47,056 nt of DNA from a virus (Duplodnaviria > Caudoviricetes), in IMG/VR virus record IMGVR_UViG_3300023237_000017, positions 1-47,056 of that record. One strand, given 5' to 3'. The notes beneath the pieces are model-generated. The model saw only the letters and a program-made list of their open reading frames with translations. It was not told the DNA's origin and ran no database searches. Below, in pieces: positions 1,776 through 44,068 of this stretch. The first letter of the stretch is position 1; each line of letters opens with the position of its first letter. Made by a program: the position numbers and the translations under genes.

Positions 1776-2351
1776 ATGTCCCGCGCCACGTACCTCGTCA
1801 CATCTGAAGCCATGCCGGAAACATGGAGGCCGTGCCATTGCACTAGTTTCTATGAAGTCAGCAGCCTTGGACGGATCAAGTCTCTCGCTCGAAAGGTTAG
1901 ATGCGGCCCGCCACCAGGAACGAAAGATATTCCGGAGTGTATTCTCGGCCCCACCATTCTAACGACCGGCTACCTGCAGGTAAAATTGCACGGGAAAAAG
2001 CATCTACTCCACCGTCTTATAGCTGAGGCGTTTTTGCCGGGCGACCCACGCAAAACGGTGAACCATAAAAATGGGGTGAAGACTGATAATCGAATCGAAA
2101 ATCTGGAATGGGCGACCCATTCAGAAAACCAAAAGCACAAATATCGTGTGCTCGGATGCACCCCGCCCTTTTTGGGGAAGTTTGGGCTAGATCACCCAAA
2201 AGCCAAGCCAATTACATTCAACGGTGAAACAAGGTCCGTAAAAGAATGGGCAAGGCTTCGAGGCTGGAAGCCAAACGTAATTTATGGGCGCGTCCGCATG
2301 GGGTGGCCCATCTCCCGCATCCTCACCCAGCCAGTCAGGAAATCCAAATGA
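1776..2351 (+). CDS. NUMOD4-HNH homing endonuclease
   Basis: ETWRP..YEVSSLGRIKS (NUMOD4); HRLIAEAF...VNHKNGVKTDNRIENLEW (HNH_3); visibly more AT-rich than its flanks. Confidence 0.9.
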   Translation: MSRATYLVTSEAMPETWRPCHCTSFYEVSSLGRIKSLARKVRCGPPPGTKDIPECILGPTILTTGYLQVKLHGKKHLLHRLIAEAFLPGDPRKTVNHKNGVKTDNRIENLEWATHSENQKHKYRVLGCTPPFLGKFGLDHPKAKPITFNGETRSVKEWARLRGWKPNVIYGRVRMGWPISRILTQPVRKSK

Positions 2352-2683
2352 TCACCGACAAGCAACTCGAATGGGCAATGGACATCCTGATTGACAGGGA
2401 GAGCCAAGCCGCGAAGGCAAGGGCCGCGCATGAACACATGTCCGATCTGGACAAGGTTGTCCTGGCGAAGCTGACAAACGACGCACCAAGCGATCTGAAG
2501 TCAGCAGCCTCACGGGAAACATGGGCAAGGGCTCACGACACCTACGAGAACCACCTCGACCAGAAACGAGTGCTTGCGGAGATGGACTACAAGCTGCGCG
2601 ACCGTCGATCCGCTGCGAATGCAATCGTCGAGGCTTGGCGAACAGAGCAGTCAAATGCGCGGGCATCGTCACGGGTTGGATAG
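2348..2683 (+). CDS. Helical hypothetical protein, possibly a UvsY-like recombination mediator
   Basis: ATGA-coupled start at 2348; SAASRETWARA...EAWRTEQSNAR pattern recalled from phage recombination operons. Confidence 0.5.
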   Translation: MITDKQLEWAMDILIDRESQAAKARAAHEHMSDLDKVVLAKLTNDAPSDLKSAASRETWARAHDTYENHLDQKRVLAEMDYKLRDRRSAANAIVEAWRTEQSNARASSRVG

Positions 2684-2720
2684 CACGGATTGGATCTACA
2701 CGAACACATGGAGAATGAGA

Positions 2721-3008
2721 ATGGTTGATGAGAGAGAGATTGAGGCGATCAGGGAACGGCATGAGGACATGGTGAAATATTTGGCTTCTAATGGCAACAA
2801 GGGTCCGTGGGACTTTATTGGTCAAGATGCCCACGCCGACCGTGCCACCCTCCTATCCGCCCTTCTCGCAGAGAGAGAGCGTGTGGCTGCGCTGGAAGCG
2901 GCTGCGCAGAAGGCGTTGCAGGCGCTTCGCCGCAATCAGGCAGCGGGCCTGCGGATAGGTGATGCGATCCTGTGGCTAAGCTCTGTACTGGAGTCCGGTT
3001 ATGAGTGA
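2721..3008 (+). CDS. Hypothetical protein
   Basis: GGAGA RBS before ATG 2721; fills the operon. Confidence 0.55.
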   Translation: MVDEREIEAIRERHEDMVKYLASNGNKGPWDFIGQDAHADRATLLSALLAERERVAALEAAAQKALQALRRNQAAGLRIGDAILWLSSVLESGYE

Positions 3009-3375
3009 GCGCAAGCCGCTGACCAAGCTGCAATTCGCCCGCATCGCGCTGGACCAGAACGGTCGCTGCGGATGCGGATGCGGCAAGCGGCTGGACTTCC
3101 AGAAGCCTCGCCAGATCACAGACGAGCACCTCAACCCGCTATTTTCAGGAGGGGCCAATGACCTTGAAAACCGAGCGCTTTGGGACTCGGACTGTTCCAA
3201 AGAGAAGACCCGCAAGGAAGCCCCTGACCGCGCCAAGGTTCGCCGGATTGAGCAGGGCAAGACGCAGGCGGACAAACGGTCAAGGCGTGGCGGCTCGTCC
3301 ATTCATGGCCGTGGATTTCAACCAAAACCCGAGGGCTATGTCAGCCCATTGAGTAAGGAAGGTAGAAGACGATGA
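3001..3375 (+). CDS. HNH endonuclease-like protein
   Basis: Q.GRCGCGCG...DEHLNPL..GGAND.EN......C..EKT; the final His appears replaced (CS instead of CH). Confidence 0.75.
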   Translation: MSERKPLTKLQFARIALDQNGRCGCGCGKRLDFQKPRQITDEHLNPLFSGGANDLENRALWDSDCSKEKTRKEAPDRAKVRRIEQGKTQADKRSRRGGSSIHGRGFQPKPEGYVSPLSKEGRRR

Positions 3376-3626
3376 GTTACGGAAAGATTTTTTACCACAT
3401 CGCGGCCAGCACAGTCCTTATAGTGCTGGTGCCCATAATGAGTGTGTTCGATATTGGGGCGGGGGTGCTGTCAGGGCTTATCTTCGGTGCAGTTCTCGGT
3501 GACACATGGGCTGCGCTAATGACAGGAACCGGCTGGCCTCTTGAGGCTTGGCAAACGGGCGGATTGGCGGCGTTTGTCGGTTCATTTTTCAGGCCTAACG
3601 TAAACCTTCAGGGGGCCTCAGAATGA
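3372..3626 (+). CDS. Small membrane protein
   Basis: Hydrophobic Gly-rich segments; ATGA coupling at both ends. Confidence 0.6.
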   Translation: MSYGKIFYHIAASTVLIVLVPIMSVFDIGAGVLSGLIFGAVLGDTWAALMTGTGWPLEAWQTGGLAAFVGSFFRPNVNLQGASE

Positions 3627-3826
3627 GCGCGCTTCGTGAAAAGCTGGCGGCGAAAGCCCGGTTCCATCCTCCGGTCGCAGGCATGGGATCGCTCTCAATT
3701 GACGACGCTGTCGCTGAATTTAGATTGTGGCTGGAGGAGCGCATCGGCTGGGATGTCGATGCATTACTCCATGATCTGTTTTTATCGGAGCCCTCAGAAT
3801 GAGCGCGCTTCGGGAGAAACTGGCGC
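3616..3826 (+). repeat. Duplicated gene junction CCTCAGAATGAGCGCGCTTCG...CTGGCG
   Basis: Copies start at 3616 and 3792; both encode SE* / MSALREKLA. Confidence 0.85.
3623..3802 (+). CDS. 59-aa hypothetical protein (absent from the ORF track)
   Basis: Hand translation MSALREKLAAKARF...LFLSEPSE*; ATGA overlaps at both ends. Confidence 0.6.
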   Translation: MSALREKLAAKARFHPPVAGMGSLSIDDAVAEFRLWLEERIGWDVDALLHDLFLSEPSE

Positions 3827-4041
3827 GGCAATGGCTGGAGCGTAGATATAACGATCCTGCAGCGTGGCATAGCAGCACTGTGTCCAACCGAAATCGCGCA
3901 ATGATAGAGGCCACTTTTATCATCGCAGTATTTGAAGCAGAAGCCCGCCAAGGCAACCTTCCCAGCGAACTGCTCTCAGCGGTCGATGAGGGGCGCGATG
4001 TAGCTGCTGCTCGTCGGCTGGCGAAGGGGGATACCAAGTGA
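3799..4041 (+). CDS. Hypothetical protein
   Basis: 80-aa coupled ORF sharing the MSALREKLA N-terminus. Confidence 0.6.
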   Translation: MSALREKLARQWLERRYNDPAAWHSSTVSNRNRAMIEATFIIAVFEAEARQGNLPSELLSAVDEGRDVAAARRLAKGDTK

Positions 4042-4091
4042 ACCGTTTAATCAGGTGCACCACTGCACCTAGTAAGGAGAGAGGAAGAGTG

Positions 4092-4520
4092 ATGTCTGTC
4101 ACGGACCCATTTGAGTTTTACGCGAACTATGACGCATCGGAACTGGTGCGCCTGAAAAGGGCATCATGGAATTATGACCGACACGAAGAGAAGATGGAGA
4201 AAGAATGCAGGCCGTATCTGGCCAAGTTGAAGCGCCGCGCAACTGCTGCCGTAAAGCCGCACAGGGTGGAGTTTTCATCAGGAGGTGCTTTGCCACGCTG
4301 GAAACCGCGCATCGTTTTCAGCGGTCACTTCATGCCCAACAGATACGCTGACGTGATAGGTAATCAACCTACGATAACGTTCACCCTCTTCCCGCGTGAC
4401 ATGGATCATTTTGACAGTTTCTTTCGGTCGATGAAGGCGGCACTGGATGCGCTCTCAGAGACAGAGATATATTTTACTCAAGAGGAATATGACCGCATAC
4501 GAAAAGCCGCCGACCAATGA
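4092..4520 (+). CDS. Hypothetical protein, last gene of the + strand early operon
   Basis: Purine-rich RBS before ATG 4092; GTG 4038 is an alternative start. Confidence 0.6.
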   Translation: MSVTDPFEFYANYDASELVRLKRASWNYDRHEEKMEKECRPYLAKLKRRATAAVKPHRVEFSSGGALPRWKPRIVFSGHFMPNRYADVIGNQPTITFTLFPRDMDHFDSFFRSMKAALDALSETEIYFTQEEYDRIRKAADQ

Positions 4521-4564
4521 GAAAAGCCCGCCAGTTCGTCACCAAAGGCGACATACTGACGGGC
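4521..4564 (-). terminator. Intrinsic terminator at the convergence of early and late operons
   Basis: Long imperfect hairpin 4526-4564 followed by TTTTC on the minus strand. Confidence 0.55.
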
Positions 4565-7632: not shown

Positions 7633-7839
7633 CTAGTTGAGCTTCTTGGCCTGCTTGAAGCCATAAACCACAGCGCCGACGAACACGACGAAAGCCACGG
7701 CTCCGACGATGGGCGCAGGCAGGAAGCCCGTCACTGTCCCATTCATCAGGATGTTATCGATGCCAAAGGCAAGGGCGAGACCAGCAAGGGCGTTGCCGAT
7801 CCAGGTTAGTGAAAGGTCAGGTGTCTTGATCTGAGCCAT
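7633..7839 (-). CDS. Two-TM small membrane protein (holin candidate)
   Basis: AAAGGAGG RBS; two hydrophobic helices and a basic C-terminus; next to the lysis cassette. Confidence 0.55.
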   Translation of the reverse strand: MAQIKTPDLSLTWIGNALAGLALAFGIDNILMNGTVTGFLPAPIVGAVAFVVFVGAVVYGFKQAKKLN

Positions 7840-7898: not shown

Positions 7899-8222
7899 CT
7901 AAGAGCGCAGGGCTTCGGGGTGGCAGATGCGGACATACTTGCCGTTATCTTCGGTCAGCTTGCTGAGGCAGTCGAACGTCTTGCAAGCGCCAGGATGCGA
8001 GATGCGCCGAACCGTCTCAGGGTCATTGCACCACTCGATTGCAGCAACACCTACCATCCCATTATGCTCGATAATGCTGGCGATCCATATGCCTATTCCA
8101 GACAGGAACACCATGACTGACACGAACGCAAAGCCCTTAACCATATTGTTCACATAGTAGCGTCTGACAGGTTCGCCAGATTGGGATGCCTCACGGGCAA
8201 TCTGTTCTGCGAGCGAGGTCAT
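7899..8222 (-). CDS. Single-TM membrane protein with Cys-rich C-terminal domain
   Basis: TM segment FAFVSVMVFLSGIGIWIA followed by four Cys. Confidence 0.55.
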   Translation of the reverse strand: MTSLAEQIAREASQSGEPVRRYYVNNMVKGFAFVSVMVFLSGIGIWIASIIEHNGMVGVAAIEWCNDPETVRRISHPGACKTFDCLSKLTEDNGKYVRICHPEALRS

Positions 8223-8470
8223 CAGACACTACCAGCGCATTCGGCAGCCCACTTTTCAACATCCTTCACCATTTTTTGCCGCGCTTCGAGTGGGCTTGCA
8301 TCAAATGCGCCTGCACTCAGTTCAGTCGGCTTTGTGATGGAACACATTGTTTTGTGTTCGATCCGCACCGCGCTGTTGATCGCGTCCTTAGTCACCGAAT
8401 AAGAGGCGTCTGGTGTCGTCGCGCAGGCTGTCGCTAGTGATATCACCAGACACAGCATCAGCGGCCTCAT
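8222..8470 (-). CDS. o-spanin (Rz1-like lipoprotein)
   Basis: Signal peptide with lipobox LATAC; overlaps the 3' end of the Rz-like gene; downstream of endolysin. Confidence 0.7.
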   Translation of the reverse strand: MRPLMLCLVISLATACATTPDASYSVTKDAINSAVRIEHKTMCSITKPTELSAGAFDASPLEARQKMVKDVEKWAAECAGSV

Positions 8471-8702
8471 TGGCTTTCTCAATACGTTCATCTGCTCGTT
8501 CCTCTAGTTTTGCGAGTTCCTTGGTTGCAACTTTTTCTGCCTTCTGGACGGCCTTGGCATTTGCGCCCTTGCGGACCTTTCGATCGTGCAGGCCAAGCCA
8601 CGAAAACCAAACGATGATGCCAGCAATAATTCCCACAGCCCATTGAGCCGCCTTGTTCTTGGCGATGAAATTGAACAATGAGAAGAATGCGCCCTCTATC
8701 AT
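8388..8702 (-). CDS. i-spanin (Rz-like)
   Basis: N-terminal TM plus Ala/Lys/Glu coiled coil; follows endolysin. Confidence 0.7.
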   Translation of the reverse strand: MIEGAFFSLFNFIAKNKAAQWAVGIIAGIIVWFSWLGLHDRKVRKGANAKAVQKAEKVATKELAKLEERADERIEKANEAADAVSGDITSDSLRDDTRRLLFGD

Positions 8703-9991
8703 CCGAGCAATGTATCCGCTTCTGCCTCACCCTTACGCCGCTGCCACTTCCCGTAATAGAACAGGACCACAGAGATCAGGATGACACCAAGAAAGAAAAT
8801 GGCAACCGTCTGACCGGTGTAAGCCTTAGTTGCCTTGATGATAGGCTCAACAGCGCCCAGCTGTTCCGCAGCCCAGCCCGCAGCAGCTACGCCGCCAAGC
8901 ATCTTGGCCTGCTCCGACTTCGCATATCCCTTGCCACGCTGGGCGTCCTGAATGCGCTCGACCTTTGGCGTCACACCCTTCGGCAAATAACTGATATCCT
9001 CGATTGCCTTTGGTGGCTTGGAAGCAACCGATCGTGGTGCCGTTTTGGCGGGCAGTGGAAATTCTGGGACTGGTTCCTTCTTCATCACGGCAAGCATCGC
9101 CGCATTGAGCCATGCAGTCTGCGCTGACTCTGGCGCCTGCTCATATCCGTCTGGCGTAGGAACTTCATTTCCACCAATAATCATTATGACTTTAGACATT
9201 GGTTTCGGGGCCTCTAGTAATAGGGGAGGGGTTTCGGTTTTAATGGGCGCGGGGATTACATCAGCAGGCAATTGTGCCGCAATCTCATGTGGTGGCAGGG
9301 GATGCTGGCGCGCGATGCGAAGCACATCCTCCCACGGTGTCTTGTAATCCACGCGGTCACGCCAGCGGCCTACTCCGTTCCAGTCGGGTTGCCAGATCGG
9401 GGTGGGTCTCAATTCGATCCGGCTCTCATCGCAGGCCTCAAACCCATCCAGCCCGAGGAACAGGCAGCCAAGGTGGAGGTTCCGGCGATAGAGACCGCGA
9501 TAGGCAACCTTCCATTCCTGCCCCTTAGTGAGCATCTTTCCATCAGGTCCGAACGCGGCATCCTTGACCGAGCCATCCGCGTTGAATGTCGTTCGCTTGG
9601 TCGCATACACCCAGTCGCCAAAGGCTGCCGCAGCATCCGCGTAGCGTCCGGCATTGATGTTGCCCAGAATGCCTTCAGACGTGGCAAAGGCGCCCGTGTT
9701 GTAATCCATCAGGACGCACGCATCGAACTGGTACTGGTTCAGCTTGTCGCCCGCGACCCTGCGTACATTATCCTCGTAACGCTTCATGGTCTGCTCAGAT
9801 ATAAGGTCATACTCGGCAGGCTTCAGGCTCATGCCTTTGCGCACCTTCGTCCCATCAGGGAGGATCGTGATGCCGTCACCGATCTGCCAGTTGCCAGCGG
9901 TATCCTGGTGAGCGGTAAGATTGGGACCAGATTTCGGGCGCTCGAACGCGGTGTTCACGCCCATCGCTATTGCAGATATGCCTGTAATCAT
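8699..9991 (-). CDS. Endolysin, GH24 lysozyme-like, with C-terminal membrane anchor
   Basis: FE...D..G.W.IG.G.T, LNQYQFDA.V..DYN.G, IN.G.Y..AA..F..W, GL.RR; Pro-rich linker; C-terminal TM. Confidence 0.85.
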   Translation of the reverse strand: MITGISAIAMGVNTAFERPKSGPNLTAHQDTAGNWQIGDGITILPDGTKVRKGMSLKPAEYDLISEQTMKRYEDNVRRVAGDKLNQYQFDACVLMDYNTGAFATSEGILGNINAGRYADAAAAFGDWVYATKRTTFNADGSVKDAAFGPDGKMLTKGQEWKVAYRGLYRRNLHLGCLFLGLDGFEACDESRIELRPTPIWQPDWNGVGRWRDRVDYKTPWEDVLRIARQHPLPPHEIAAQLPADVIPAPIKTETPPLLLEAPKPMSKVIMIIGGNEVPTPDGYEQAPESAQTAWLNAAMLAVMKKEPVPEFPLPAKTAPRSVASKPPKAIEDISYLPKGVTPKVERIQDAQRGKGYAKSEQAKMLGGVAAAGWAAEQLGAVEPIIKATKAYTGQTVAIFFLGVILISVVLFYYGKWQRRKGEAEADTLLG

Positions 9992-11475
9992 GGTCGCCTG
10001 CCCTCCTCAAGAATGGTTGTCAACATGCCCGCAGCCTCATCTGAGGCGAATACCGAGCACATGCCGCTGTCGCTGATCTGGAACGTCACCGATACACTAG
10101 GCTCTCCAGCCGGCGCCGGCGTAATCTGGTGGCGAAGGTCTGCAAGGAAGTGATTGCCCTTCGCTGCGCTGTCATCGCCTTGGAGAACCACAATCGCCAT
10201 CTCTAACTGGTCATCGCGCTCTGAAGTCAGGACAACCGTTTGCGAGGTTCCGAACTTCGCGCCCTTCGGAATCACCGGCAGGAACGACCCGCCGCTGGTC
10301 TCGATCCCATAAGGCAGGGATACGATGTCAGTATTGGCAGCCTGAGCCAGCCGGTTGTCATTGATTGCCGCCTTGATAGCAGCGCCCATTGCCACAACCT
10401 CATCAGGGTTGACGCCCTTCATCGGCTCCTTGCCATTAAAGAATGCCTTCACTGCATCGCGCACGATCGGCATACGGGTCATGCCTCCGACCATGACGAC
10501 ATGCTGGATATCCACCTTCTTGCGCTTGGCGTCATCGAGGCATTGCTTGGATATGGTCAGGGCTTCAAGAACGTAATCCTTTACCAGCCCCTCGAACTCG
10601 TCGCGGGTGATGACCTGCTTCAGGTGGACCGGCCTGTCATCCTTGTCAGTTGCCACAAAGGGAATGCTGATCGTCGTGCTCTGCTCATCAGACAGCTCGC
10701 GCTTGCCGCCCTCGGACGCATCCGCCAGCGTCAGCATGGACATCCGGCGCGGGCGCAGGTCGATATTGTTCTCTTCCCTGTACTTCTCCACCACGAAATC
10801 AGTCAGCCGCGAGTCGAAATCCACCCCGCCAAGGCGCTGCTTTCCATTGGTTTCCAGCACCTCCCAATAGCCCGAAGCGTACTGCACAACCGCCACGTCA
10901 AATGTCCCGCCGCCAAGGTCGAACACGAATGCCGTCGAGAACTTGTCAGGCTTCACACCCGAAGCGAGCGCCGCAGCCATAGGCTCATTGAGTGTCACCA
11001 CATCCTCGAACCCGGCCAGCTTCGCCGCGTCGAGTGTTGCCGTCTTCTGGTCTTCATTGAAGTAGGCCGGAACCGTGACAACCGCCCCCGTCACAGGCTT
11101 GCCCAGCCATTCCTCAGCCGTCAGACGCAGCTTGCGCAGGATCAGCGCGGAGATTTCAACAGGCGTGACAATCCCGTCCCTGCCCTGCAAGGCGATCATG
11201 CCATCAGGCCCCTCGATACCCTGAAGGCCATTGTCCGCATCGTCATCCCATGCCCGGCCAATGATCCGCTTGACGTTGGAGAACGTGAACTCGCCATTCA
11301 TTTTGACTTGGCCACGCGCCGAAGCGCCAACCAGGACCTCACCACTCTCCAGATAGGACACCACAGACGGCATGGTCCGGCGCCCGTCAGACATCGGGAT
11401 CACATGCGTATTTTGGCCATCATTGTAGGCCACACATGAGTTGGTCGTGCCAAGGTCAATGCCGATCGTGTTCAT
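9988..11475 (-). CDS. dnaK: Hsp70/DnaK-family protein lacking the helical lid (495 aa)
   Basis: IGIDLGTTNS, TVPAYF, NEP.AAA, FDLGGGTFDV, LGG.DFD, VGGMTRMP, NPDEVVAMGAA and a beta-SBD; start at ATG 11475, coupled to the upstream stop. Confidence 0.95.
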   Translation of the reverse strand: MNTIGIDLGTTNSCVAYNDGQNTHVIPMSDGRRTMPSVVSYLESGEVLVGASARGQVKMNGEFTFSNVKRIIGRAWDDDADNGLQGIEGPDGMIALQGRDGIVTPVEISALILRKLRLTAEEWLGKPVTGAVVTVPAYFNEDQKTATLDAAKLAGFEDVVTLNEPMAAALASGVKPDKFSTAFVFDLGGGTFDVAVVQYASGYWEVLETNGKQRLGGVDFDSRLTDFVVEKYREENNIDLRPRRMSMLTLADASEGGKRELSDEQSTTISIPFVATDKDDRPVHLKQVITRDEFEGLVKDYVLEALTISKQCLDDAKRKKVDIQHVVMVGGMTRMPIVRDAVKAFFNGKEPMKGVNPDEVVAMGAAIKAAINDNRLAQAANTDIVSLPYGIETSGGSFLPVIPKGAKFGTSQTVVLTSERDDQLEMAIVVLQGDDSAAKGNHFLADLRHQITPAPAGEPSVSVTFQISDSGMCSVFASDEAAGMLTTILEEGRRP

Positions 11476-12812
11476 TCTGCTGGCTCCAGTACGGGTTCCC
11501 CAACAGGCAGCGTGACACCAATATCGAGCGTCGATCTGTCGGACACAGGCACCTTGACGGCATCGCGCGCCTTGGCGTTCATGGCTGCTGCACGTCCACC
11601 CCAAGCGCCCCAAACCTTGGGGCCGGGCTTTGTTTCAGGCTCAGGCTCATCTTCTTGTTGCGGTTCTTGTGCAACAGTTTCTTCACTTTTTTCTTCCGTG
11701 TTTTCAACGGCTTCGGTTTCTTCGGGCTTTGTTTCCGTCTCGGGTTCCTGTTCCTGCGGGGCATCGGAGGCCTCCTCGTGACGGGCCAGTCCAGCCAATG
11801 CGTTGACGGCTGATACGGCTGCGATCATATCAGGGTAATCCCCCATCAGGATGGCGGCTTCAGCCTCAGCCTCACGCGCCAGCTTGCGCTTCAGGGCGAG
11901 GGCACGGATGCGGGCTGATGCCAGTTCGGACTCGTGGTGGATATCGGCAATGTCTTCCTCGATCGCCACATCCACGATGGTCCGCATGTAAGGACGCTTC
12001 AGGGCGACGTATGCGCCGAGACCGAGAGCCGCGATGGCTTCAATCAGCATGGCGAGGTAGAACAGCCCGCTATTTGACCATGCGTCCTGGCCGAGGAATG
12101 TGTGATCCCCGAGCCAGACGAACACGGCCCATGTCGTGTCTTGCTCTGCGACACTGGCGCCGTCCACGGTGGCAACATCTTTCTCATTCCTGATAGCCTC
12201 GATCTTGTCTTCAACCGCCTGCCGATCGGTGCGGGCCTGATCGCGATATCCCTTTTCTTCGACACGCAGGTCAGAGAGAGACTTCAGATCCTTCTCAGGA
12301 ATGCCCGGCACCCCGTCATCCTCGATCGCAGCCATCGCCCGTGCGACACTGGCCACAGAGCTTGCAAGGTCAGCACCTATCTCGGTCTTCTGCGCTTCCA
12401 GCTTTGTGATGCGCTCAGCCTTGGTTTCGATGGAGGCGGTATTGGTCGCCTCAACCATCGTGACAGATTGCTCTTTATCAGAGTGGCCGGCAGCAAAGAA
12501 GTTGATGGCAGACAAGAGGCAGGCTGCGACACACGCCACCCAGAGAACGCGCATGGTCGTTCGGGCTGCGTGGTTGCCGTCGCCTTTCTTGAACTTCTGG
12601 AGGAACACGCCGCTCGCCACAGCGACTGTGCGGAACACAATGCCAATCAGGACGAACACCAGCGTCAGCCAGCCGAACTCGACAAGGCTGCCGAAAAAGA
12701 TCATGTCGAGGATGTAGACGGCCACAACCGCGCTCACGAAAGCGAAGAACACCATGCGGTCTGCCATCTTGAGCAGGCCCGATCCGCTTACATTGGGAAG
12801 GCGAAGGTTCAT
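11472..12812 (-). CDS. Membrane protein: 3 TM, long coiled coil, TM, acidic tail
   Basis: Hydrophobicity pattern read from the translation; ATGA coupling at both ends. Confidence 0.75.
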   Translation of the reverse strand: MNLRLPNVSGSGLLKMADRMVFFAFVSAVVAVYILDMIFFGSLVEFGWLTLVFVLIGIVFRTVAVASGVFLQKFKKGDGNHAARTTMRVLWVACVAACLLSAINFFAAGHSDKEQSVTMVEATNTASIETKAERITKLEAQKTEIGADLASSVASVARAMAAIEDDGVPGIPEKDLKSLSDLRVEEKGYRDQARTDRQAVEDKIEAIRNEKDVATVDGASVAEQDTTWAVFVWLGDHTFLGQDAWSNSGLFYLAMLIEAIAALGLGAYVALKRPYMRTIVDVAIEEDIADIHHESELASARIRALALKRKLAREAEAEAAILMGDYPDMIAAVSAVNALAGLARHEEASDAPQEQEPETETKPEETEAVENTEEKSEETVAQEPQQEDEPEPETKPGPKVWGAWGGRAAAMNAKARDAVKVPVSDRSTLDIGVTLPVGEPVLEPAE

Positions 12813-13138
12813 GCCACTTCTCCCATTTCAAGACAGATCGTCGTCGTCAGGCCCTCATGGTGGATTGTCACATCCATGAAGTCCTTCTCGACAATCTCGC
12901 CCTTGTCCTGATCGAACACTTCTTCAGCCTGGCGAAACGCGAGCGCGATGCCGATACCGATGATACCTGCGTGGGCGCAATGAACCTTAAGCGACTGGAC
13001 AATAGCATCCCACATGGCCATGCCAGCGGATGCGTCATGCGCATTCGTGGGGATTTCAGCCTTGGTATACGGGCTTGCCTCACCCCATGACTCAATCGTC
13101 CTGAGAAGTAGATCGCCCGTTATCTGCATGTCTGTCAT
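12809..13138 (-). CDS. Hypothetical protein
   Basis: ATG 13138 directly after the upstream stop; coupled to the downstream gene. Confidence 0.6.
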   Translation of the reverse strand: MTDMQITGDLLLRTIESWGEASPYTKAEIPTNAHDASAGMAMWDAIVQSLKVHCAHAGIIGIGIALAFRQAEEVFDQDKGEIVEKDFMDVTIHHEGLTTTICLEMGEVA

Positions 13139-13139
13139 A

Positions 13140-13517
13140 TCAACCCCCAAAGTATCGCATGGCGAATGGAAGGGCTCTCTCAATGCCTGCGAAAACCAGC
13201 ATCCCGACCATCACTATGTACGGCATCCATTCCCGTTTCTGTTTGGGCGGCAGGCGCTCGCCAACTTCCCGCGCAATCTTGTTCTCGATCTTCTCCCATT
13301 GGAGATTGAAGGCAGCCTCGACCGTCTTCATGACGACCTCATTGATTTTCTCGGAGGTCTTGCCTTCGTGCTTTTCCAGCTGGCGACCGAGCTTTTCCCC
13401 GACACGCTCAATCGCAGCTGTCATGCCGCGCTCGATGGCCGTCAGGTGCTCATGTCCCGGCAGCCCGCGCACACGTTCCTCCAAAGCCCCGAACTCTTTC
13501 TCGCTGACCTCAGCCAC
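13140..13517 (-). CDS. Coiled-coil protein with C-terminal TM
   Basis: GTG 13517 overlaps the upstream stop; TM segment WMPYIVMVGMLVFAGI. Confidence 0.6.
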   Translation of the reverse strand: MAEVSEKEFGALEERVRGLPGHEHLTAIERGMTAAIERVGEKLGRQLEKHEGKTSEKINEVVMKTVEAAFNLQWEKIENKIAREVGERLPPKQKREWMPYIVMVGMLVFAGIERALPFAMRYFGG

Positions 13518-14004
13518 GAGACTTGCCAGTGATTTCGTATTCAAGCCCGAACAGGTAAGTGTGGCGGTCCTGCTGTTCCTTCGAGGCGGCGTTAGATCCA
13601 ACCAGGTCCCACAGGTTGCTCAGTTCCGCGCTCAGGCGGCGTTTCAGTTCCGGCAGGCTTTCGCCCTCACGCTGTTCATTGCGTAGCGCCTGCGATGGCT
13701 CAGCAGGCTTGGCGGCCTTTTCCAGTGTTTCGAGGGTGCGCTCCAGCGTCTCGCGTGGGCCTGGAACTTCGCGATCGACATAGACGATGCGATCAACAGG
13801 CACCTCAACACGGCGCTCGACTTCAACAATCTTCTCCACCTCGACAGTCTCAATGACCGTGTTGGTGATGGTGATCGGCTCAGGTGCGGGGGCTGGCGTC
13901 CTGTTGCGGCGCTTCAGGTCTTTGAAATACTGGGCGCGCTTGTGCCCGAACAACGCAATGTTGCCGTCACATTCGGATAGCTTAGGCGGGGCAAACGTGT
14001 CCAT
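13510..14004 (-). CDS. Hypothetical protein with Val/Glu/Pro alternating repeat
   Basis: VIETVEVEKIVEVERRVEVPVDRIVYVDREVP. Confidence 0.65.
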   Translation of the reverse strand: MDTFAPPKLSECDGNIALFGHKRAQYFKDLKRRNRTPAPAPEPITITNTVIETVEVEKIVEVERRVEVPVDRIVYVDREVPGPRETLERTLETLEKAAKPAEPSQALRNEQREGESLPELKRRLSAELSNLWDLVGSNAASKEQQDRHTYLFGLEYEITGKSRG

Positions 14005-14010
14005 GCCCTT

Positions 14011-14046
14011 GGGGTAGCATGGGGGCTGGGGATATAGCGGGAATGG
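14011..14046 (-). promoter_or_regulatory. Candidate late promoter of the Hsp70-lysis operon
   Basis: CCATTC-N6-TATCCCCAGCCCCC shared with 34381-34356; CCATTCCCGCTA shared with 7898-7887. Confidence 0.55.
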
Positions 14047-14205: not shown

Positions 14206-14385
14206 TCAAGCGTTCCTCTCTATCCATGCGATTATGTCTGCTTTGGTCGTCGTCTTGCCTTTCAGGGCAGCCAGTCCGGCAAGTATAGCGCCCTTTGGTC
14301 CGCCATGCAGAGCAGCCATCTCCTCCAGAAGCGAAATTTCTTCTTCGGAAAACCTGAATGATTTCGGGGTGTTGGGCTTTTTCAT
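14206..14385 (-). CDS. Ribbon-helix-helix (Arc/CopG-like) regulator
   Basis: MKKPNTPKSFRFSEEEISLLEEMA: alternating beta strand then helix; 59 aa. Confidence 0.6.
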   Translation of the reverse strand: MKKPNTPKSFRFSEEEISLLEEMAALHGGPKGAILAGLAALKGKTTTKADIIAWIERNA

Positions 14386-14391
14386 AGTCAC

Positions 14392-14456
14392 AATGTAGCG
14401 CATATTGAAAATAATGCAATACATTTGTTGACAGCGCACTACACATGCGCTACATT
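14392..14456. promoter_or_regulatory. Divergent sigma70-type promoters with operator repeats
   Basis: Plus: TTGACA(14428)-17-TACATT(14451). Minus: TTGCAT(14419)-16-TACATT(14397). Perfect 12-bp inverted repeat AATGTAGCGCAT / ATGCGCTACATT. Confidence 0.75.
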
Positions 14457-14462
14457 ACAAAG

Positions 14463-14644
14463 GTCAGCAGGGATTGCCGGAAGGCGCTGAGCGAAAATCC
14501 CAGAGGCCGATGTTTGAAAACTGAGAGAGACAGTCTGGACCGGAGAGGGCGTAGCGCGCTTTCCCCCGTCCCGATGGGGCGCCGGGTGCGACAAACACCC
14601 GGACACCACGCCAGCGATGGCGCAAAGCTACTGAGGAGCTTTCC
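14463..14644 (+). ncRNA. Structured 5' leader / candidate cis-regulatory RNA
   Basis: About 180 nt between promoter and ATG with several stems and two GNRA loops (GGAA, GCGA). Confidence 0.45.
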
Positions 14645-15379
14645 ATGTCTCAATCTATAACCTCCACACGCTTTCTCAAGGACTTTGAGGGACGCCGGGT
14701 CACAGCTTGCGCAATCTTCGTTGCGGCTTTTGGCTCAGCAGCCCTGAATGTTTGGGGAGCAACACAGATTTTCCCTGACTGGAAAGTCGGCATGATCTTC
14801 GCCGCAGTCGTTTCGGCTGGTGAGGTCATCGCCTTTCTCGCCCTTCGATCGATCATGAAGGACCGCGAAAACAATTGCTTCTGGAAGTCTCGGCTTGGTG
14901 CGCTCATCCTGGCTCTGGCAATCGCAGGCTGTGTCATCTCTGGCCACCGCGCGTTCCACACCCTTTCACTGGAAGCATCTGCCAATCACGGGGCTCTCGT
15001 GATCCGCGCAGAAGCTGCCCAGAAAGAGGCTGACAAATATCTGGCGACCCTGCTCAGCGACGACACGGGCGTAATTCGTGCTCGCTGGGAATCACGGCAG
15101 GACCGCGCTGATGCGGCCAAGCTCCGCGTCATGAAGTCCGAACCCCTGCCTGCGTCGATAACCTACGTGTTCCTCGCCCTGTTTGAAATCATCAAGATTG
15201 GTGGTCTCTGGGCGCTGGCGACACCATCGACAAAGGGCCTGACAAAAGCCCAGCGCAAGTCGCTGAAGCGTCGGGCCAAAATCACGGAAGCCAAGGCTAA
15301 TGCCGACTTCGAGCGCAAGCTCGCAGAGGTTTCCGATGCGGACGACAGCAATGTCATCCCGATGGCTGCGAAAGCGTAA
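14645..15379 (+). CDS. Moron-type 4-TM membrane protein (superinfection-exclusion candidate)
   Basis: Only + strand gene in the late region; own promoter, GAGGAG RBS and terminator; 3 TM, coil, TM, basic tail. Confidence 0.7.
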   Translation: MSQSITSTRFLKDFEGRRVTACAIFVAAFGSAALNVWGATQIFPDWKVGMIFAAVVSAGEVIAFLALRSIMKDRENNCFWKSRLGALILALAIAGCVISGHRAFHTLSLEASANHGALVIRAEAAQKEADKYLATLLSDDTGVIRARWESRQDRADAAKLRVMKSEPLPASITYVFLALFEIIKIGGLWALATPSTKGLTKAQRKSLKRRAKITEAKANADFERKLAEVSDADDSNVIPMAAKA

Positions 15380-15611: not shown

Positions 15612-15700
15612 TTCTTCTGCCCCACGAAATCGCTGAGGATCAGGGCGAGGAACATCAGGCAGCCAACGCCAAATAAGATCAGGTCTTGTCGATCAAACAT
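15608..15700 (-). CDS. 30-aa single-TM micropeptide
   Basis: MFDRQDLILFGVGCLMFLALILSDFVGQKK*; TGATG-coupled to the giant gene. Confidence 0.55.
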   Translation of the reverse strand: MFDRQDLILFGVGCLMFLALILSDFVGQKK

Positions 15701-18700
15701 CAGTTGTCCTTGTCTGGCCCTGTAATCAGCGCCTCATAGAGTGTCGGGTCATCGTCCTGCGTCATGGTCTTCTCGATCTGAAGCAGCTGGACACCACCCG
15801 GAATACCAAGCCCAAGACCTGCCGCCTTGCCTGTAGACTTGGCTGCACGGCCAACCATATCACCCTCGACTTCACCGCTCATAAAGAGGTCTGTTGCGAC
15901 TTCCTGCCAGCCCGTCACAGCCTTCCATGCCTCGGTGCCAAACTGCATGAACGCAGGGCCGGAGTCGTACCTGCTGATTGCCGAACTCAAGCCCGGCACG
16001 AGGCCGACAGTATTGCGGCCCATCAGCTTCAGGACGTTATCGAGATATGGATCATCGTCATCCCCGAGACCAGAGCGGATCAGGGCTTCCATGAGCGCGG
16101 CGACAATGTTCAGGATAACCATGTGCTTGACGATCGGGATCGCCTTCTTGATGCCCTGCGCCTTGGAAACCTCATTGCGGATTGTCCCGTAATAGCCTGA
16201 GACATAGCCGTACATGAAGGTCAGGTTGCGCAGGAACTCATTGCCGCCCTGCCACATGCCCTGATCCAGTTCCAGGCCCGAGCCCTGCGTCGTCGCAATC
16301 GCCCGGTCTGCCTGCGCTACGGCATCGGCATCACTATCACCGCGAGCCAGAGCGTCATGGTAGACCCCCATCCAGAGCGGGCCGGAGACAGTGTATTTTT
16401 CAATCCACGTCATCGGCAGGTAGCCGGCGCCCTGTATCCTTGCCCAACGGCTTTGGCTTGGCGACTTACGCAGCAGTTCATGGGCCTCACGGTTGAGCGT
16501 GTTCTCCCGTTCGCGCATGAATGCCGACTTCTCGGAGATGAACTTCCACGCCTTCACTGTCCCGATAGGACCGCGACCGTGGAACGCCATGACGCCAGAC
16601 AGGACTGTCTTGAACCCATATTGCGGGATGACAGTCTGGAAGTATGAAATCGGCGCCAGCAGGGCAACCTTGAGATTGTAGCCAAGGATGAAGATACCCG
16701 CATTGATCCTGAACGTGCGGAACATCCCCTCGATATGGTCTGACGTGCGCTCAGTGCCGACGACCGTGCGCTTGAGAACGGTCTCCAATACCTCAAGATA
16801 TTCCTTACCGTGCGTCTCGGTCATCACCCGGCGAAACTCTTTATTGCGCAGGATGCGAGACACTTTCTGCGCTTCTTCGCGCAAGTAGATATCATTCGTC
16901 ACCTGGTCGATGTGGCCAAGGATGACACCAAGGCTCAGGTTCAGCGGACGCTGCACGTTCTGGAGACGGGCCTGCAAGTGTCCCTGCTTGGTCTGGGCAT
17001 AGGTAGACATCGCGTTCATCGTATCCTTGAACATATCGTCCAGCTCGCTGCGCTTCAGATCCTCATTGACCAGCAATTCCTTGTCATAGGATATCGGGTA
17101 ATACCCGCCCTGATAGGTGCCGTGGCGCGTCACGAATGGCTTGCCGTCAACCTTGGGAGGAGCAACGCCTGTCGCGCGCTTGTGCACCGCTGAGGCTTCC
17201 GGCCAGAGCGAGTTGATCAAGTCCCATGTTTCCTGCACTGCATCCCAATGGCGCTTCTCCATGACCGGATCAATCGCAGCCATGACCGCGTTTGCGTCAC
17301 CAACAATTGTGGGATCACCGTCAATTCGCATCCGGTTGCCGTCATTGCCCATGTTCAGAGCAACGCCCAGAACCTGCTCGAACTTCACCGGCAGGGCGTC
17401 GATTTCCTTCACCGTCATGCGGTTCATCAGTTCAGACTGGGATATGCCGTGCTTCTTGAAGATGGCCGCCAGCTGGTGCGCCAGATGTTCGCGGCGCGAA
17501 TTGCGTTCAGTCAGCTTGCTGCGAAGTCCAGTTTCCAGCGCATCGATGACGTTGCCACGCTTACCGCCTTGCAGGGCTTCCACAAGGAAGGGCCAGCGAA
17601 GAATGCGGCTGTCGAGATAGCGCAGGAACTCGTCTGTCTTCTCTGGGAATGTCGGGTTCCGGCGTTCTGTCTTGGTCTTGCCGGTCCAGTTGGATTCAAC
17701 CTCACCCGCCAGACCATCCGCAAAGGCTTTGAATGCCGCACGTTCAGCTTCACTCTCCTGCCTGCCGATCGTGCTCAGGCTTTTGACGCCATCACGGAAC
17801 TCGCGCAGCTGGGCCATCGTCATCGAGACGCGCTCAGGCATCGGGGTTCCGAGCACGACCGCGCTTGGCAGCACGATAGCCCGGCCCTCAGCGGCCTCCT
17901 GTGCAGCAAATGCCGCAATCTCAGCCATCGAGCCTTGCTGGTTATCCGCGCCCGGCAATGCCATGAGTGCGCGGATCTGGGCGATATAGTCGGTGTTGAC
18001 CTTCTTCGCGTCGATCTTCCGGTGCGCCGCAAAGCGGGCAAGGAACCGATTGATCGTCGCTATCTCGGCTTGCGCCTTGTAGGCCCTGCGAGCCAACTCA
18101 TGCTGCAACATGGCCTGATGGGTATATCTGAGCGCATCATCCCACTTTTGCGCAGCAGCGGACCTTATGGCGCGCTTATGGAGGTCTCTGGCTTTCAGGG
18201 CATAGGTGCCGGGGCGAACGACTTCCTTGATAGGCGTGTTGTCGATCATGTTCTGGGCGCGGGCGCGGATGACACCCAGAGGAATAGGCCGCTTGGCTGC
18301 CTGCTCTGCCAGTGCATCGCGCTCAGCTTCGAGCATCTTGATGTTCGGCTCGTTGAACACGGCCTCGATTGCTTCCATCTCGGCGCTGCCATCGGTCAGC
18401 AAGTCGCCATAGAGGTCATCCAACTCGCGCTTGGTCTCGGCCTTGATCAAGGCTTCGGCTGGCTTGGCGCCCTTCATGGCATCGACCAGTTCCTGCCCTG
18501 TCGCAAACCCGTAATCAGGCGCGAGCATGTCTGCCTCAGTGCCGACTGCCAGACCGGGATGCTCAGCAATGGCGCGGTAAATGTTTGCGCCTTCCACATC
18601 TGCCCTGACTTCGGCCTCGATACGGGCCTCATCTGCCTTGTAGGCTGCACGTTCACGGCGCTTGATGGCGTCCATGTGCTTGCGGAACAGCTTCTCCTTG

Positions 18701-21700
18701 GCCACGTCTCCGGCCTTCTGGGCGAAGTCCTTGTACTTCTCGACCAGTTCAGGTGACATGATGCCAGCCATCGCGCGGGTCAGGACAGAGCCATACTCGC
18801 TGCGAGCCGCCTCGATCTCCTCATCCGTCGCCAGCATCCGGTCAAACATGTCGCGGGCTTCGTCATTCAGGTTCGGCAGCTTGCCACGCAGGCGGCTGTA
18901 GACCTCAGTGAACCATGCCTTGAATGTGCGGAACACGCCTTTCATCTCGGCGCTTGGGGCGTTGCCTTCCATCAGGTACGCCTCGAACGCTTCGGCAAAT
19001 GCCTCATGCTGGGTGCGGGTCAGGGATTGGCCCGGCTCCAGGTTCAGGAACTTGCGGATCGCAGCCATGCGCTTGGCGACGTTCTCATTCTCGCTTTCGA
19101 GCGCAGCGTACAATTCGAGGAAGATGTGCGCACTCTCGTGCATGAAGCTGGTCTTGTCTGCCGCTTTGGTGAGACGGACGACGACTTCACGGTCAGAGAG
19201 GATTTGCGCACCGGGCAGGCCATGCAGGGCGCCGGGGATGAGGACTTCAGCGCGAGACTTCTTGGAGTTATTTGTCTTGCGGGGTTGGCCTAGGGTTTCT
19301 TGGCTGGTGGTGTTGCCGGCGTCCGGCGCAGCCAAAGAAGGGCCGTACGTTTCGCGTTTCGGTTTGCCCAGCAACTCGTCCTGGAACAACGACTCGCCAT
19401 CATCAAGAATTGCAATATCGTCAGCGCTGAAAACAACATAGTTCTTATCGCCAGACTTCAGCGTAGCATCATCGGCCAAGACACCCTTGACACCGATATC
19501 CAGAAAGAACTCTGACGCGGCCTTCTTTGACCCGAGAATTGCGGCAGTAATGTCATAAATGATGCCGCCCGAAGTCTCATCTGCGGGAGAGTCAAACTCC
19601 CTCATCTCCAGAAGGCGATCTAGCTGTTCCTTCGTTGCGTAATCAGAAATGTCATCTAGATTGTTTTCCCCCGAAAGGTACGCCTCAACTTGCGCTTGCG
19701 GGTCTACACTGTAGGGAACGTCCTCGCTCTCATTCAGTTCATCGATTATCGCCTCAATCTTGCCGTCAGTATCGAGCGCATAAATCACGTCAGTCATTGA
19801 GAATGGCTGATCATTCAAATCGCCTTCCCACTTTATCAGATACTCATCATTTGGGATGGACGCCTTGATGACGCGCCCCTTCGCCGTAATGTACTCTTGC
19901 GCTACGCTCTTGCTGTTTGTGAAGTAGAAGCCCCAGCCAAATTTCTGATTGCCGTCAGCACTCCCGATTTCAGACGAGTCAAACTTGTCAAATGCAGCAT
20001 CTGTCCCATGGTACGCCGTCTGGTGTAACGACTCGCCCATATGCTCAGACATGCGGTCGCGGATCGCCTCCAGCACTGTGTCAACATCGGACACGCCAGC
20101 GTCGATCTCATCCATCGCAAGGTTGGTGTAGTGCTCTAGCAGGCCTTGGAACGGCGCACCGTCAATGCCTAGATCATTCGCTATTGAGCGGACGCCGACT
20201 TCGAGCGCGCGAGCATCTTCTTGAGCGCCGGATGGAGCGCCGACAGGTTCAGCCTCTCGCCTTTCAAAAGTTCTGAGCTGCTGGATGAAGAAGTCTTCGC
20301 CTTGGGGGCTTGCGACGGCTGGCTGGTCTGAGACGTAGGACTTGCCTGCTGGCCTTGCGCCTCCGGCACCGACGAGAGTGAACCCATATCCTGTGTCGTC
20401 GTCGGCATAGGCGTTTTCATTCTCGTCAATCCTCGTTACAAAGTCTTTCCAGAATGCGCGCTCTTCTGCCGTCTGAGCAGGGAAGTGAACGGGCATCTCC
20501 GTGTATTGCTCAGATATAGCATAAAGGCGCTCAAGAAGCGATATCTGATCTTGCTCTGACAGGGTTGCCACATCCAGACGCTCACCAAACCGCGCCTCAT
20601 TCGGGGCAGCATACACCTCCATCGACATTGCAGCATTCGTGCCGGGCTTGTCCATGAACTGAACAAAGAACGCTTCAGAGCCGATCTTGAACCCGTAGCG
20701 GCGCGAGCTATCTCCGCCGCCTTCCACGTTCTCGATCAGGGCTTCATTCTCAAGGAAGTCATTGGCGTCGAATGTGCCGGACTGGTTTAGGGTTGCTCCG
20801 CCTGTTCCCTGGCCATCTCCTGTACCGCCTCGGCTATCTCCCACATCTCGTCCGTCCATTCCTCCTGCGGAGGTATCTTGTACGGCATCGGGGCCGATTT
20901 CTTCGGCGTGGACGGCGTGGTATCCTTGCCACTTGTTGCCATCGACATCGGTGCCGGATCGTCCTTTGACGCTTTCGGTTTCGGTATAGTCGCCAAGGGT
21001 CTCTCCATCTTTCAGGACAACAAAGTGCCGGGTTTCCGGGATGATCGGTGCGCCCGATATCTCGCCATCACGGTTCGTCACACCACCAATAATCGTTGAG
21101 ATGCGGTGGTTAGTATAACCTTCAAAGGCCGTTTTGGACAGGATGAAGTTATAGAGCTTGTCCTGCCCCTTGCCCGATCCGCTGAATGAAATAGCTGACG
21201 GCTGCTCAAGCGCCACCCAATGCCGCAGAACAAGAATGCCTCGCGCGAAAAACTCCTGCGCTTCCTTGCTCTTGGCGCGGATCTCTTTTGCTATGGCCTC
21301 ACGCTCAGCCTGCTGCTCGGGCGTCATGTTATCTGGCTTGGGTCCAAGCTTCAATTTGTCGGTGCCCAGCGTCCCCTTAAGGAACAGCGTTGCAGTAGCC
21401 TTGCCATTCACGTCCACGAACAGGCTGACGTTCGCATCCTCACGCTCAAGCGAGTCATTTGTCTTGAAGTGAAGGTTTACCGATCGCGCGCCGTTGCCCA
21501 TCTCCTGGCTGATCTCGCGGACGTTCTCAACGTACCAAGCGCCTGTCTCCTCGACCGAGGCATTCAGCATTTCGGTCACAGGGTTCTGGAACAGCGGTGT
21601 TCCCCCTGCGTTCCTGATCTTTACGCGTTCTTGAGACAGCATCGAGTCAACGCTGCCAGCCGTGGTCTGTGTTCCGAATATCGCCCGAATGCGCTCAGCG

Positions 21701-43658: not shown

Positions 43659-44068
43659 GCTGCTCGTTCCTTCGCGTATGTCTTGCAGGCCACAGGGCGC
43701 TGCGCTTCGATTTCGTTGATCATGTCCTGGAGTTCGCACTGCCGCCTGCGGAGCCAGAACAATAGCCCCGGTGGCGACAGGCCGAGTTCGCGAGCGGCTG
43801 ACGACCGGGACCGGCCCGCAATGTCCGACAGTGCGACCGTGCGCAGGCGATAGTCTGCCTCGTCTCCCGATAGTTCGCTTTGGTTGCGACCGTCGAGCAG
43901 GGCCCGGTACAGTTCCGGCCACATCTGAAGCCATTTCCACACTGCAGCAGTCGAGACGCCCTCAGCGCGCGCGAAGTCGCTGATGTTGCCGCCTGCCTCA
44001 GCGATGGCCCAGCCGCGAACACGGCGGTCGCGGTGGCCTGCGTGTCCAAGTGCGGGGTAATGGGTCAT
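43655..44068 (-). CDS. Tandem HTH protein
   Basis: GNISDFARAEGVS..AV.KWL and SRSSAARELGLS...L..WL. Confidence 0.65.
   Translation of the reverse strand: MTHYPALGHAGHRDRRVRGWAIAEAGGNISDFARAEGVSTAAVWKWLQMWPELYRALLDGRNQSELSGDEADYRLRTVALSDIAGRSRSSAARELGLSPPGLLFWLRRRQCELQDMINEIEAQRPVACKTYAKERAA

Follow-up and report, generated by a model that had tools for sequence, protein, structure and literature searches.

Why would a tailed phage carry an Hsp70 of its own inside an apparent lysis operon, and on which protein would it act? The question is raised by the IMG/VR virus record IMGVR_UViG_3300023237_000017 (Duplodnaviria; Caudoviricetes), whose positions 1 to 47,056, the whole stretch of 47,056 nucleotides (nt) analysed here, are called the window below. 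The initial annotation of this DNA had described a chain of eight genes at 8222..14046 and had taken its Hsp70 for a captured DnaK repurposed as ATPase partner of the adjacent membrane proteins. All eight genes were found there on the minus strand, and the four reported ATGA overlaps (12809, 11472, 9988 and 8699) are real. The chain is a real, selected and undescribed phage module, a lysis cassette in which the gene of an Hsp70 without its lid lies between those of a four-transmembrane (4-TM) protein and an endolysin, and whose partner and role we infer from the evidence below. Its central features, with lengths in amino acids (aa), are:

11472..12812, minus strand: 4-TM membrane protein, 446 aa, distantly DUF4407-like
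11538..11600, minus strand: tail motif of the 4-TM protein (residues 405-425), a GG-led basic helix then an aliphatic strand; proposed Hsp70 docking site
9988..11475, minus strand: lidless Hsp70, 495 aa, with nucleotide-binding domain and beta substrate-binding subdomain
8699..9991, minus strand: GH24-type endolysin, 430 aa (PF00959, E 2e-17; phrog_7; PDB lysozymes)

The arrangement was recurrent. Alignment scans with the 4-TM protein detected 5 viral and at least 17 metagenome loci, of which 19 were examined, three being left out of the 4-TM set as copies of the window or of locus L006. Among the loci listed, the Hsp70 gene lay next to the 4-TM gene in all 14 informative ones (in L013 judged by its first codons), the other five examined ended inside the 4-TM gene, and the endolysin gene then followed in 11/11 loci reaching that far. 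The initial annotation had proposed a search of viral databases for Hsp70 next to endolysin: an independent scan with an Hsp70 motif returned 17 viral loci, namely 16 family members and one chance match, with the endolysin next in 16/16 and a multi-TM gene seen before the Hsp70 in 15/16 (L119 mirrors L113). The Hsp70/endolysin junction was mostly a 4-nt overlap, and the position of the Hsp70 was constant across the 14 groups, at 70% identity, into which the 22 full-length Hsp70 rows fell. None of 80 control loci, generic lysozymes taken from the endolysin scan, carried the 4-TM gene or the Hsp70. Genome scans gave no match to the 4-TM patterns; with the Hsp70 motif they gave 120 loci from 24 of 64 parts, none with cassette neighbours and three scoring better with the phage profile, by less than 10 bits. 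Weak, coil-only matches occurred in 2/401 genomes of an alphaproteobacterial sample. A 960-aa Hsp70 in a giant-virus-like contig (L002) was considered as a family member and rejected as unrelated.

The Hsp70 assignment made by the initial annotation held (Pfam HSP70, E 4e-139, profile positions 2-494 of 599), the loss of the lid having gone unnoticed: the 495-aa protein stops where the lid of DnaK starts. Both hallmarks of the superfamily, an actin-like ATPase domain and a beta-sandwich substrate-binding subdomain, are present. The structural model (pLDDT 95.5, from a 51-row alignment) resembled the ATP-docked DnaK 4B9Q with a TM-score of 0.94, AlphaFold's choice of state being no proof of the state of the real protein, and the beta subdomain strands were modelled at 380-490 with pLDDT >85. 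In the 51 family rows, which are the alignment of the Hsp70 clade (residue numbering of Salmonella DnaK), lengths were 475-519 aa and at most 3 residues aligned past DnaK 510 (11 rows). Residues D8, G10, K70, E171, D194, G229, D233 and K270 were kept in 51/51 rows, T199 and D201 in 50/51 and Q433 in 47/51. Lost positions included R167 (kept in 1/51), N170 (5/51), L390 (0/51), L391 (15/51), L392 (1/51), N415 (2/51, Gly in 48) and R467 (2/51), along with R151 (22/51), and R56 (13/51) and E264 (7/51), which presumably form the cleft salt bridge, were mostly lost too. Loss of cleft salt bridges has been linked to GrpE-free nucleotide release (PMC8215388), and R167, L391 and L392 touch the J-domain (PMC13012618). 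HscA, Lak and two huge-phage DnaKs retain R167 and L390-L392. Binding of DnaJ is unlikely because R167, L390 and L392 are lost. The absence of DnaJ and GrpE noted in the initial annotation was confirmed and extended to 0/3 genomes (the window and two complete relatives), the J-domain profile PF00226 likewise matching in 0/3.

The protein did not reach the curated NCBIfam scores of DnaK (486 vs 648 and 472 vs 823 bits, part of which is explained by the missing lid) or HscA (389 vs 709), and its closest cellular matches were alphaproteobacterial DnaKs at 43-46% identity. In a quick tree with long branches, 11 cassette Hsp70s, mutually 28-60% identical, fell on one side of a branch separating them from 19 other Hsp70s (SH-like approximate likelihood ratio test, SH-aLRT, 100). 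When 1.84 billion representatives were searched with a profile, 150 matches were listed, 149 of them new; among these 149, 50 had 470-540 aa, and 40 of the 50, known from protein sequence, joined the clade (FastTree support 0.76). Of the 99 long proteins, 7 scored higher with the phage profile. The gene is free and unfused, with open frames of 486-513 aa in 22/22 full-length locus rows, and dN/dS was 0.023-0.114 in 7/7 Hsp70 pairs, two of them near saturation; the clade is under purifying selection. Short Hsp70s with frames of 489-497 codons were also observed in Thermotogaceae and Caldatribacterium (L140 5915-7384, L173 1883-3376, L178 5969-7462), where DnaK and phage profiles scored about equally; these are possibly another lidless group.

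The 446-aa protein encoded before the Hsp70 was predicted to consist of three TM helices, a periplasmic helical hairpin (about 110-227), TM4, a cytoplasmic helix, an acidic Pro/Glu spacer and a conserved tail; by positive-inside charge counts, the tail would be cytoplasmic and the hairpin periplasmic. Its AlphaFold model was all helical (pLDDT 73) and found no PDB match at E<=0.001 in a fold search, which returned one uncharacterised phage protein (E 7e-7). The family comprised 23 members (22 homologues and the window protein), 13 of which matched PF14362 (DUF4407, likewise four-TM coiled-coil proteins) at E<=0.05, with a best E of 5.6e-7 and scores of 16-26 bits among relatives, where shown, below the Pfam cut-off of 31.3; the window protein itself did not match. 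An Atlas comparison placed it with three unnamed clusters at 0.91 and with DUF4407 at just 0.77, and the same comparison of an Hsp70-free 4-TM protein gave nothing at 0.9.

Three types of gene preceded the Hsp70: the window type, a type C that is its distant relative (HHalign 97.4%), and a type B sharing with it the tail as sole common region (HHalign 95.8%, 48 columns). Exchange of the core was visible between close relatives. Locus L007 compared with L115/L118/L129 had 99% identical Hsp70, 100% identical ORF B and 87-93% identical endolysin, with a core at 18-20% and the last 40 residues of the 4-TM protein at 85-88%; for L018 and L114 the values were 98% (Hsp70), 93% (ORF B), 94% (endolysin), 24% (core) and 100% (last 40 residues). 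L115 compared with L113/L121 showed the reverse pattern, with the core at 81-87%, the tail at 28-35% and the Hsp70 at 38%. The swapped piece of DNA ran from the start codon to 48-57 codons ahead of the stop, and the retained tail segment is longer than a ribosome-binding site would need. The protein sequence of the tail is conserved in its own right, silent vs replacement changes numbering 18 vs 1 (L121/L128) and 5 vs 0 (L018/L114), though 5 vs 6 in L007/L115. Tail and Hsp70 co-segregate through core swaps, and because the Hsp70 always travels with the last 40 residues, it likely grips the tail of the 4-TM protein.

Several variants of the membrane protein were seen on the way. Type B proteins (L113 4632-5855, L115 4662-5855) have, by eye, a motif at the hairpin tip that resembles a peptidoglycan-binding helix pair, for which no Pfam match was found. 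An Hsp70-free homologue (L261 930-2249, G182) has its tail replaced by another C-terminal domain of ~100 aa, and N-terminal extensions of ~90 aa form two extra TM helices in L006 (6725-8296) and an Ala/Lys-rich helix in L258 (11939-13477, G277).

The cassette also exists without the Hsp70. A 4-TM homologue occurred in 3/401 Caulobacterales genomes, in two of them adjoining the endolysin gene with no Hsp70, and one Hsp70-free homologue led to 8 viral loci, six with a direct 4-TM/endolysin junction and two ending at the gene, none with an Hsp70 within the DNA fetched. The Hsp70-free rows lay on one branch of the endolysin tree (FastTree, SH-like 96) and were set apart in the tree of 4-TM cores, with two changes and a long-branch join. 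The pattern would fit a single gain of Hsp70 into a pre-existing cassette, both trees being unrooted. The Hsp70 is an add-on to the lysis cassette and is not required for endolysin export as such, because sister phages keep the cassette without it.

The endolysin consists of a muramidase domain, a Pro-rich spacer and a C-terminal membrane anchor, without an N-terminal signal, and its hydrophobic anchor is C-terminal, not of the N-terminal signal-arrest-release (SAR) type; the Hsp70-free endolysins, where complete, likewise have a Pro spacer and a C-terminal anchor. The first catalytic Glu was invariant in 10 rows. Among the Hsp70-linked endolysins viewed (the window, L006, L009, L018, L022, L114, L121, L122, L128), the window and L006 carry Gln at the third lysozyme catalytic position (Thr in WTIG) and several carry Glu, against Thr in all six Hsp70-free endolysins shown. 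In T4 lysozyme, the T26E substitution traps a covalent adduct. The activity of the Hsp70-linked endolysins may be tuned down.

What, then, would the Hsp70 do? Quite possibly, though we hold this tentatively, it binds the cytoplasmic tail and regulates a holin-like or lysis-regulatory 4-TM protein as an ATP-dependent clamp. One lineage would have inserted a lidless Hsp70 into a phage lysis cassette. The Hsp70 would be co-produced with its two neighbours, the 4-TM protein and the endolysin, its peptide groove open and DnaJ hardly able to drive it. Without lid and J-protein it would act as a dedicated, fast-exchanging clamp, not as a folding chaperone. The aliphatic strand of the tail would be its ligand, lodged in the peptide groove, which keeps Q433 and its hydrophobic pocket, or replacing the lost VLLL linker residues. 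In an antiholin-like role, the Hsp70 would restrain the 4-TM protein until ATP drops or until the 4-TM protein outnumbers it. Interchangeable holins are known to serve one endolysin. The 4-TM protein would be holin-like because unrelated cores here serve one endolysin, and the ATP-dependent clamp is favoured for the same reason and because SpdB2, of similar build, passes lysozyme. SpdB2 of Streptomyces plasmids, a four-TM coiled-coil protein likened here by build, forms pores letting T7 lysozyme through the inner membrane (PMC4447253). The tail would be the simplest partner of the Hsp70; from the adjacent membrane proteins put forward as partners by the initial annotation, the evidence narrows the choice to one, the 4-TM protein with its tail.

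Within the tail, the aligned build was a GG-led basic helix and an aliphatic strand. The helix was kept in 7/8 Hsp70-free proteins, and the strand pattern, a regular expression written post hoc after viewing the sequences and missing G277, occurred in 22/23 Hsp70-linked vs 0/8 Hsp70-free proteins, the 8 negatives amounting to about two lineages and two of the positives being duplicates. The motif as a whole is proposed as the Hsp70 docking site. Besides these limits, several points weigh against a tail-bound clamp acting on a holin. A tail HMM built on 17 other proteins separated the two sets weakly, with 3/23 positives among the negatives. Identity of the Hsp70 tracked that of the endolysin as well as that of the tail (Spearman 0.68 vs 0.61, pairs non-independent). 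Linkage alone keeps the tail beside the Hsp70 start and can mimic co-segregation, and recombination may be especially frequent in the Pro-rich spacer. No profile or fold linked the 4-TM protein to holins (Pfam, PHROG and fold searches), ORF B and the 68-aa ORF compete with it as holin candidates, and the Hsp70-free cassettes show that lysis of this design can do without the Hsp70. The 4-TM gene is missing from all INPHARED records, and no cultured phage carrying it was found there.

A bolder form of the clamp is doubtful. In it, the tail would supply in trans the strand lost from the Hsp70 linker, replacing J-protein and substrate as the switch, and the Hsp70 would be an ATP-reading lysis clock, an ATPase antiholin tying bursting to the energy of the cell.

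It is unlikely that the Hsp70 instead attends to the endolysin alone, which has no signal and a C-terminal anchor, either holding it or aiding its export, whether the Hsp70 is fixed at the membrane by the 4-TM tail or unattached. The endolysin follows the Hsp70 wherever the DNA allows, mostly with the 4-nt overlap, the Hsp70-linked endolysins stand apart in the tree and carry an extra insertion, and the identity correlation with the Hsp70 is the one given above. Eight Hsp70-free loci, however, join the 4-TM gene directly to an endolysin of like build (where complete), and the lid, which matters for holding folding intermediates (PMC8215388), is missing. Endolysin export as the core job, one of the roles suggested by the initial annotation, is weakened because Hsp70-free sisters share the anchored endolysin build.

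Rather improbable, to a like degree, is that the 4-TM/Hsp70 pair acts in sensing or exclusion, be it in superinfection, lysis inhibition or envelope stress; the variable periplasmic hairpin of the 4-TM protein would then read a signal and the Hsp70 relay it. Such a device would suit a periplasm-facing core that is exchanged between near-identical phages, the integrases of two carriers (G003, G277), and the lidless DnaK-like domains of EACC1-protease defence fusions, which are proposed sensors (PMC12642450). Against it, the pair is locked by overlaps inside a late lysis block with no promoter above chance, no window protein had a PADLOC match, and the complete G004 is without a tyrosine integrase.

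Less probable still is a general late-gene chaperone that would help to assemble virions, or a decoy that would draw off host DnaJ/GrpE or defences relying on DnaK, its position being a matter of history. Roles of this kind have been proposed for the DnaK of jumbo phages (PMC12619734), and the cassette is kept across phages with differing head and tail modules, but the jumbo-phage DnaKs are full length (621-656 aa) with J-domain contacts kept, the loss of R167, L390 and L392 speaks against DnaJ binding, and the position is fixed across the 14 sequence groups. The reading as a captured dnaK in decay or as an artefact of assembly, for which the long branches and the 28-60% identity inside the clade could be cited, is refuted by the intact frames in 22/22 rows, dN/dS of 0.02-0.11, an invariant catalytic site and independent contigs crossing the junctions.

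Those contigs, from other runs, span both the 4-TM/Hsp70 and the Hsp70/endolysin junctions, and an IMG/VR contig was 99.87% identical over 17.5 kb. The doubts that the initial annotation had itself raised, a one-off insertion, neutral evolution or a chimera, do not hold in view of the 14 sequence groups, the dN/dS values and these junction-bridging contigs. Its picture of a captured DnaK derivative beside a membrane protein and an endolysin is upheld by conserved order, purifying selection and the lack of co-chaperones of its own.

Is the system a known one? DnaK with DnaJ/GrpE is alike in fold, ATP site and modelled ATP-docked state, with 40-45% identity. DnaK (about 640 aa) has a helical lid, a C-terminal tail and the R167 and VLLL docking residues, none of which is intact in the phage Hsp70, which is without lid and tail, has mostly lost R167, N170, L390, L392, N415 and R467, and has no co-chaperone genes beside it. 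HscA/HscB and HscC/DjlB-DjlC are dedicated Hsp70s with narrow clients, HscC acting at the membrane, and have lost cleft salt bridges as the phage protein has; unlike the latter, HscA and HscC keep the lid and use a J-domain partner (PMC8215388). The phage clade stood apart from the single HscA in the tree, which was built without HscC. The phage protein is an Hsp70, yet not DnaK, HscA or HscC by the features compared. DnaK-like fusions to EACC1 proteases show natural lid loss and a genetic link to a membrane-disrupting effector, but are protease fusions at ~50% identity to DnaK in bacterial defence loci (PMC12642450), whereas the phage Hsp70 is a free protein in a lysis block, with no protease.

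Viral Hsp70s are known from closteroviruses, part of the background given in the initial annotation. That background was incomplete, as full-length DnaKs also occur in jumbo phages (moraphages, PMC12619734; Lak and huge phages). These are phage-borne Hsp70s too, but the three aligned Lak/huge-phage DnaKs are full length, keep the J-domain contacts, come from genomes of 480-740 kb and fall outside the clade.

Among lysis regulators, the T4 antiholins RI and RIII are accessory proteins acting on the holin, with no homology to the cassette proteins and no ATPase described. To our knowledge, the known lysis regulators (holins, antiholins, Mu releasin) work without an ATPase. Mu releasin gp25 is likewise encoded as an accessory in a lysis block, beside an endolysin tethered to the membrane, and illustrates that tethered endolysins can need such proteins, but it has no homology to the cassette proteins, the Mu endolysin has an N-terminal SAR anchor, and no ATPase is described in the part of the source used (PMC9239132). 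No match to PF10805 (DUF2730), the releasin type, was found among the 53 window proteins. SpmX of Caulobacterales has, like the cassette endolysin, a phage muramidase, a Pro-rich spacer and a C-terminal TM (weak NCBIfam match, E 0.003), but it is a chromosomal polarity factor with two TMs (10.1101/418723), so that the likeness is one of layout. Whether TM segments were already present in the phage gene that gave rise to SpmX is not settled in the part of that paper used, and the cassette endolysins of likely Caulobacterales phages are candidates for the SpmX donor type. The open-access literature, the part of the literature covered (subscription papers excluded), contained no description of this cassette, in line with the initial annotation, which knew of no described system with its layout. 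The parts of this gene system fit none of the described Hsp70 and lysis-regulator systems with which they were compared; the mechanism is what we infer.

The remaining genes of the cassette and its flanks are:

13510..14004, minus strand: ORF A, 164 aa, soluble, first cassette gene; 45% identical to the same-position gene of L003 over the C-terminal 71 aa
13140..13517, minus strand: ORF B, 125 aa, GTG start overlapping the ORF A stop; coiled coil and one C-terminal hydrophobic segment
12809..13138, minus strand: 109-aa ORF, accessory; 30% identical to an L003 gene
8388..8702, minus strand: i-spanin candidate, 104 aa, one N-terminal TM; phrog_1026 Rz-like, E 0.0097; position kept in relatives
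8222..8491, minus strand: o-spanin candidate, 89 aa, lipobox-like Cys24; 104-nt overlap with the i-spanin gene
7899..8222, minus strand: one-TM protein downstream of the spanins, 107 aa; weak L003 match, E 0.009
7633..7839, minus strand: hydrophobic protein, 68 aa; small-holin candidate from size and position
14206..14385, minus strand: small DNA-binding-type regulator upstream of the cassette, 59 aa; phrog_3887 transcriptional regulator, E 0.019

ORF A had no Pfam or PHROG match, and divergent genes held its position in both Hsp70-linked and Hsp70-free cassettes. ORF B matched no named family; it was 44% identical to an L003 gene and is a candidate holin or antiholin. Every locus inspected, Hsp70-linked or Hsp70-free, had a protein of equal build at its position. 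The 109-aa ORF was not detected in the other 18 of the 19 4-TM loci examined. Of the four upstream genes whose co-conservation the initial annotation proposed to test, the 109-aa gene was thus seen in one relative, and ORFs A and B also occur in Hsp70-free cassettes. Its lysis gene assignments stand for the endolysin, while the spanins are called from their position, a single TM and a Cys in a lipobox-like setting (LLTSC or LLASC at the o-spanin of relatives), profile support being weak for the i-spanin (phrog_1026, E 0.01) and lacking for the o-spanin. The holin candidates in the cassette are ORF B, the 4-TM protein and the 68-aa ORF, none matching a holin family, and the 68-aa ORF matched no named family at all; small ORFs with 1-2 TMs lie downstream of the spanins in several relatives. 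The late promoter suggested by the initial annotation was not supported, with 3 sites vs 3.7 expected and none on the minus strand upstream of the cassette (14650-14004).

The window record is a 47-kb linear virus (CheckV completeness 84%). Its head and tail genes are of podovirus type, its replication genes are lambda-like, and it encodes a polyvalent protein of 3081 aa (Pfam/PHROG). Its DNA was present in the 24 salt-lake metagenome runs listed, 12 of them marked as possible sources. The host is likely one of the Caulobacterales, because a Caulobacterales genome bin contains a phage contig of 56.5 kb, with an integrase, that has structural genes and the whole cassette in common with the window; the binning may be wrong. 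Cassette phages measured 39-60 kb and varied in head and tail modules. The polyvalent protein (15700-24945, minus strand) had LPD22 and ART-PolyVal matches (Pfam). A DHH phosphoesterase (42678-43940, minus strand) was 66% identical to L003 14193-15131, the sole close match outside the cassette to L003, whose backbone differs from that of the window. Of the 23 differences between window and L001 (window 1991-3450), 20 fall into one stretch of ~230 nt, close to where the alignment ends on the side of the virion genes, and the cassette was almost invariant in this alignment. The small regulator gene and a divergent multi-TM gene (14206-15379) lie between virion genes and lysis cassette, and at the equivalent place the Hsp70-free phage L270 (about 2800-4522) encodes a similar-looking regulator along with a divergent membrane gene. 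The plus-strand 244-aa membrane gene was considered as a 4-TM family member and rejected, no homology being found.

A dedicated Hsp70 in a lysis block would, if true, be a new way of timing phage lysis. The Hsp70-free sister cassettes and the swapped cores provide ready-made controls. A natural Hsp70 without lid and J-domain contacts, kept under strong selection in at least 14 groups, tests what a bare Hsp70 motor can do.

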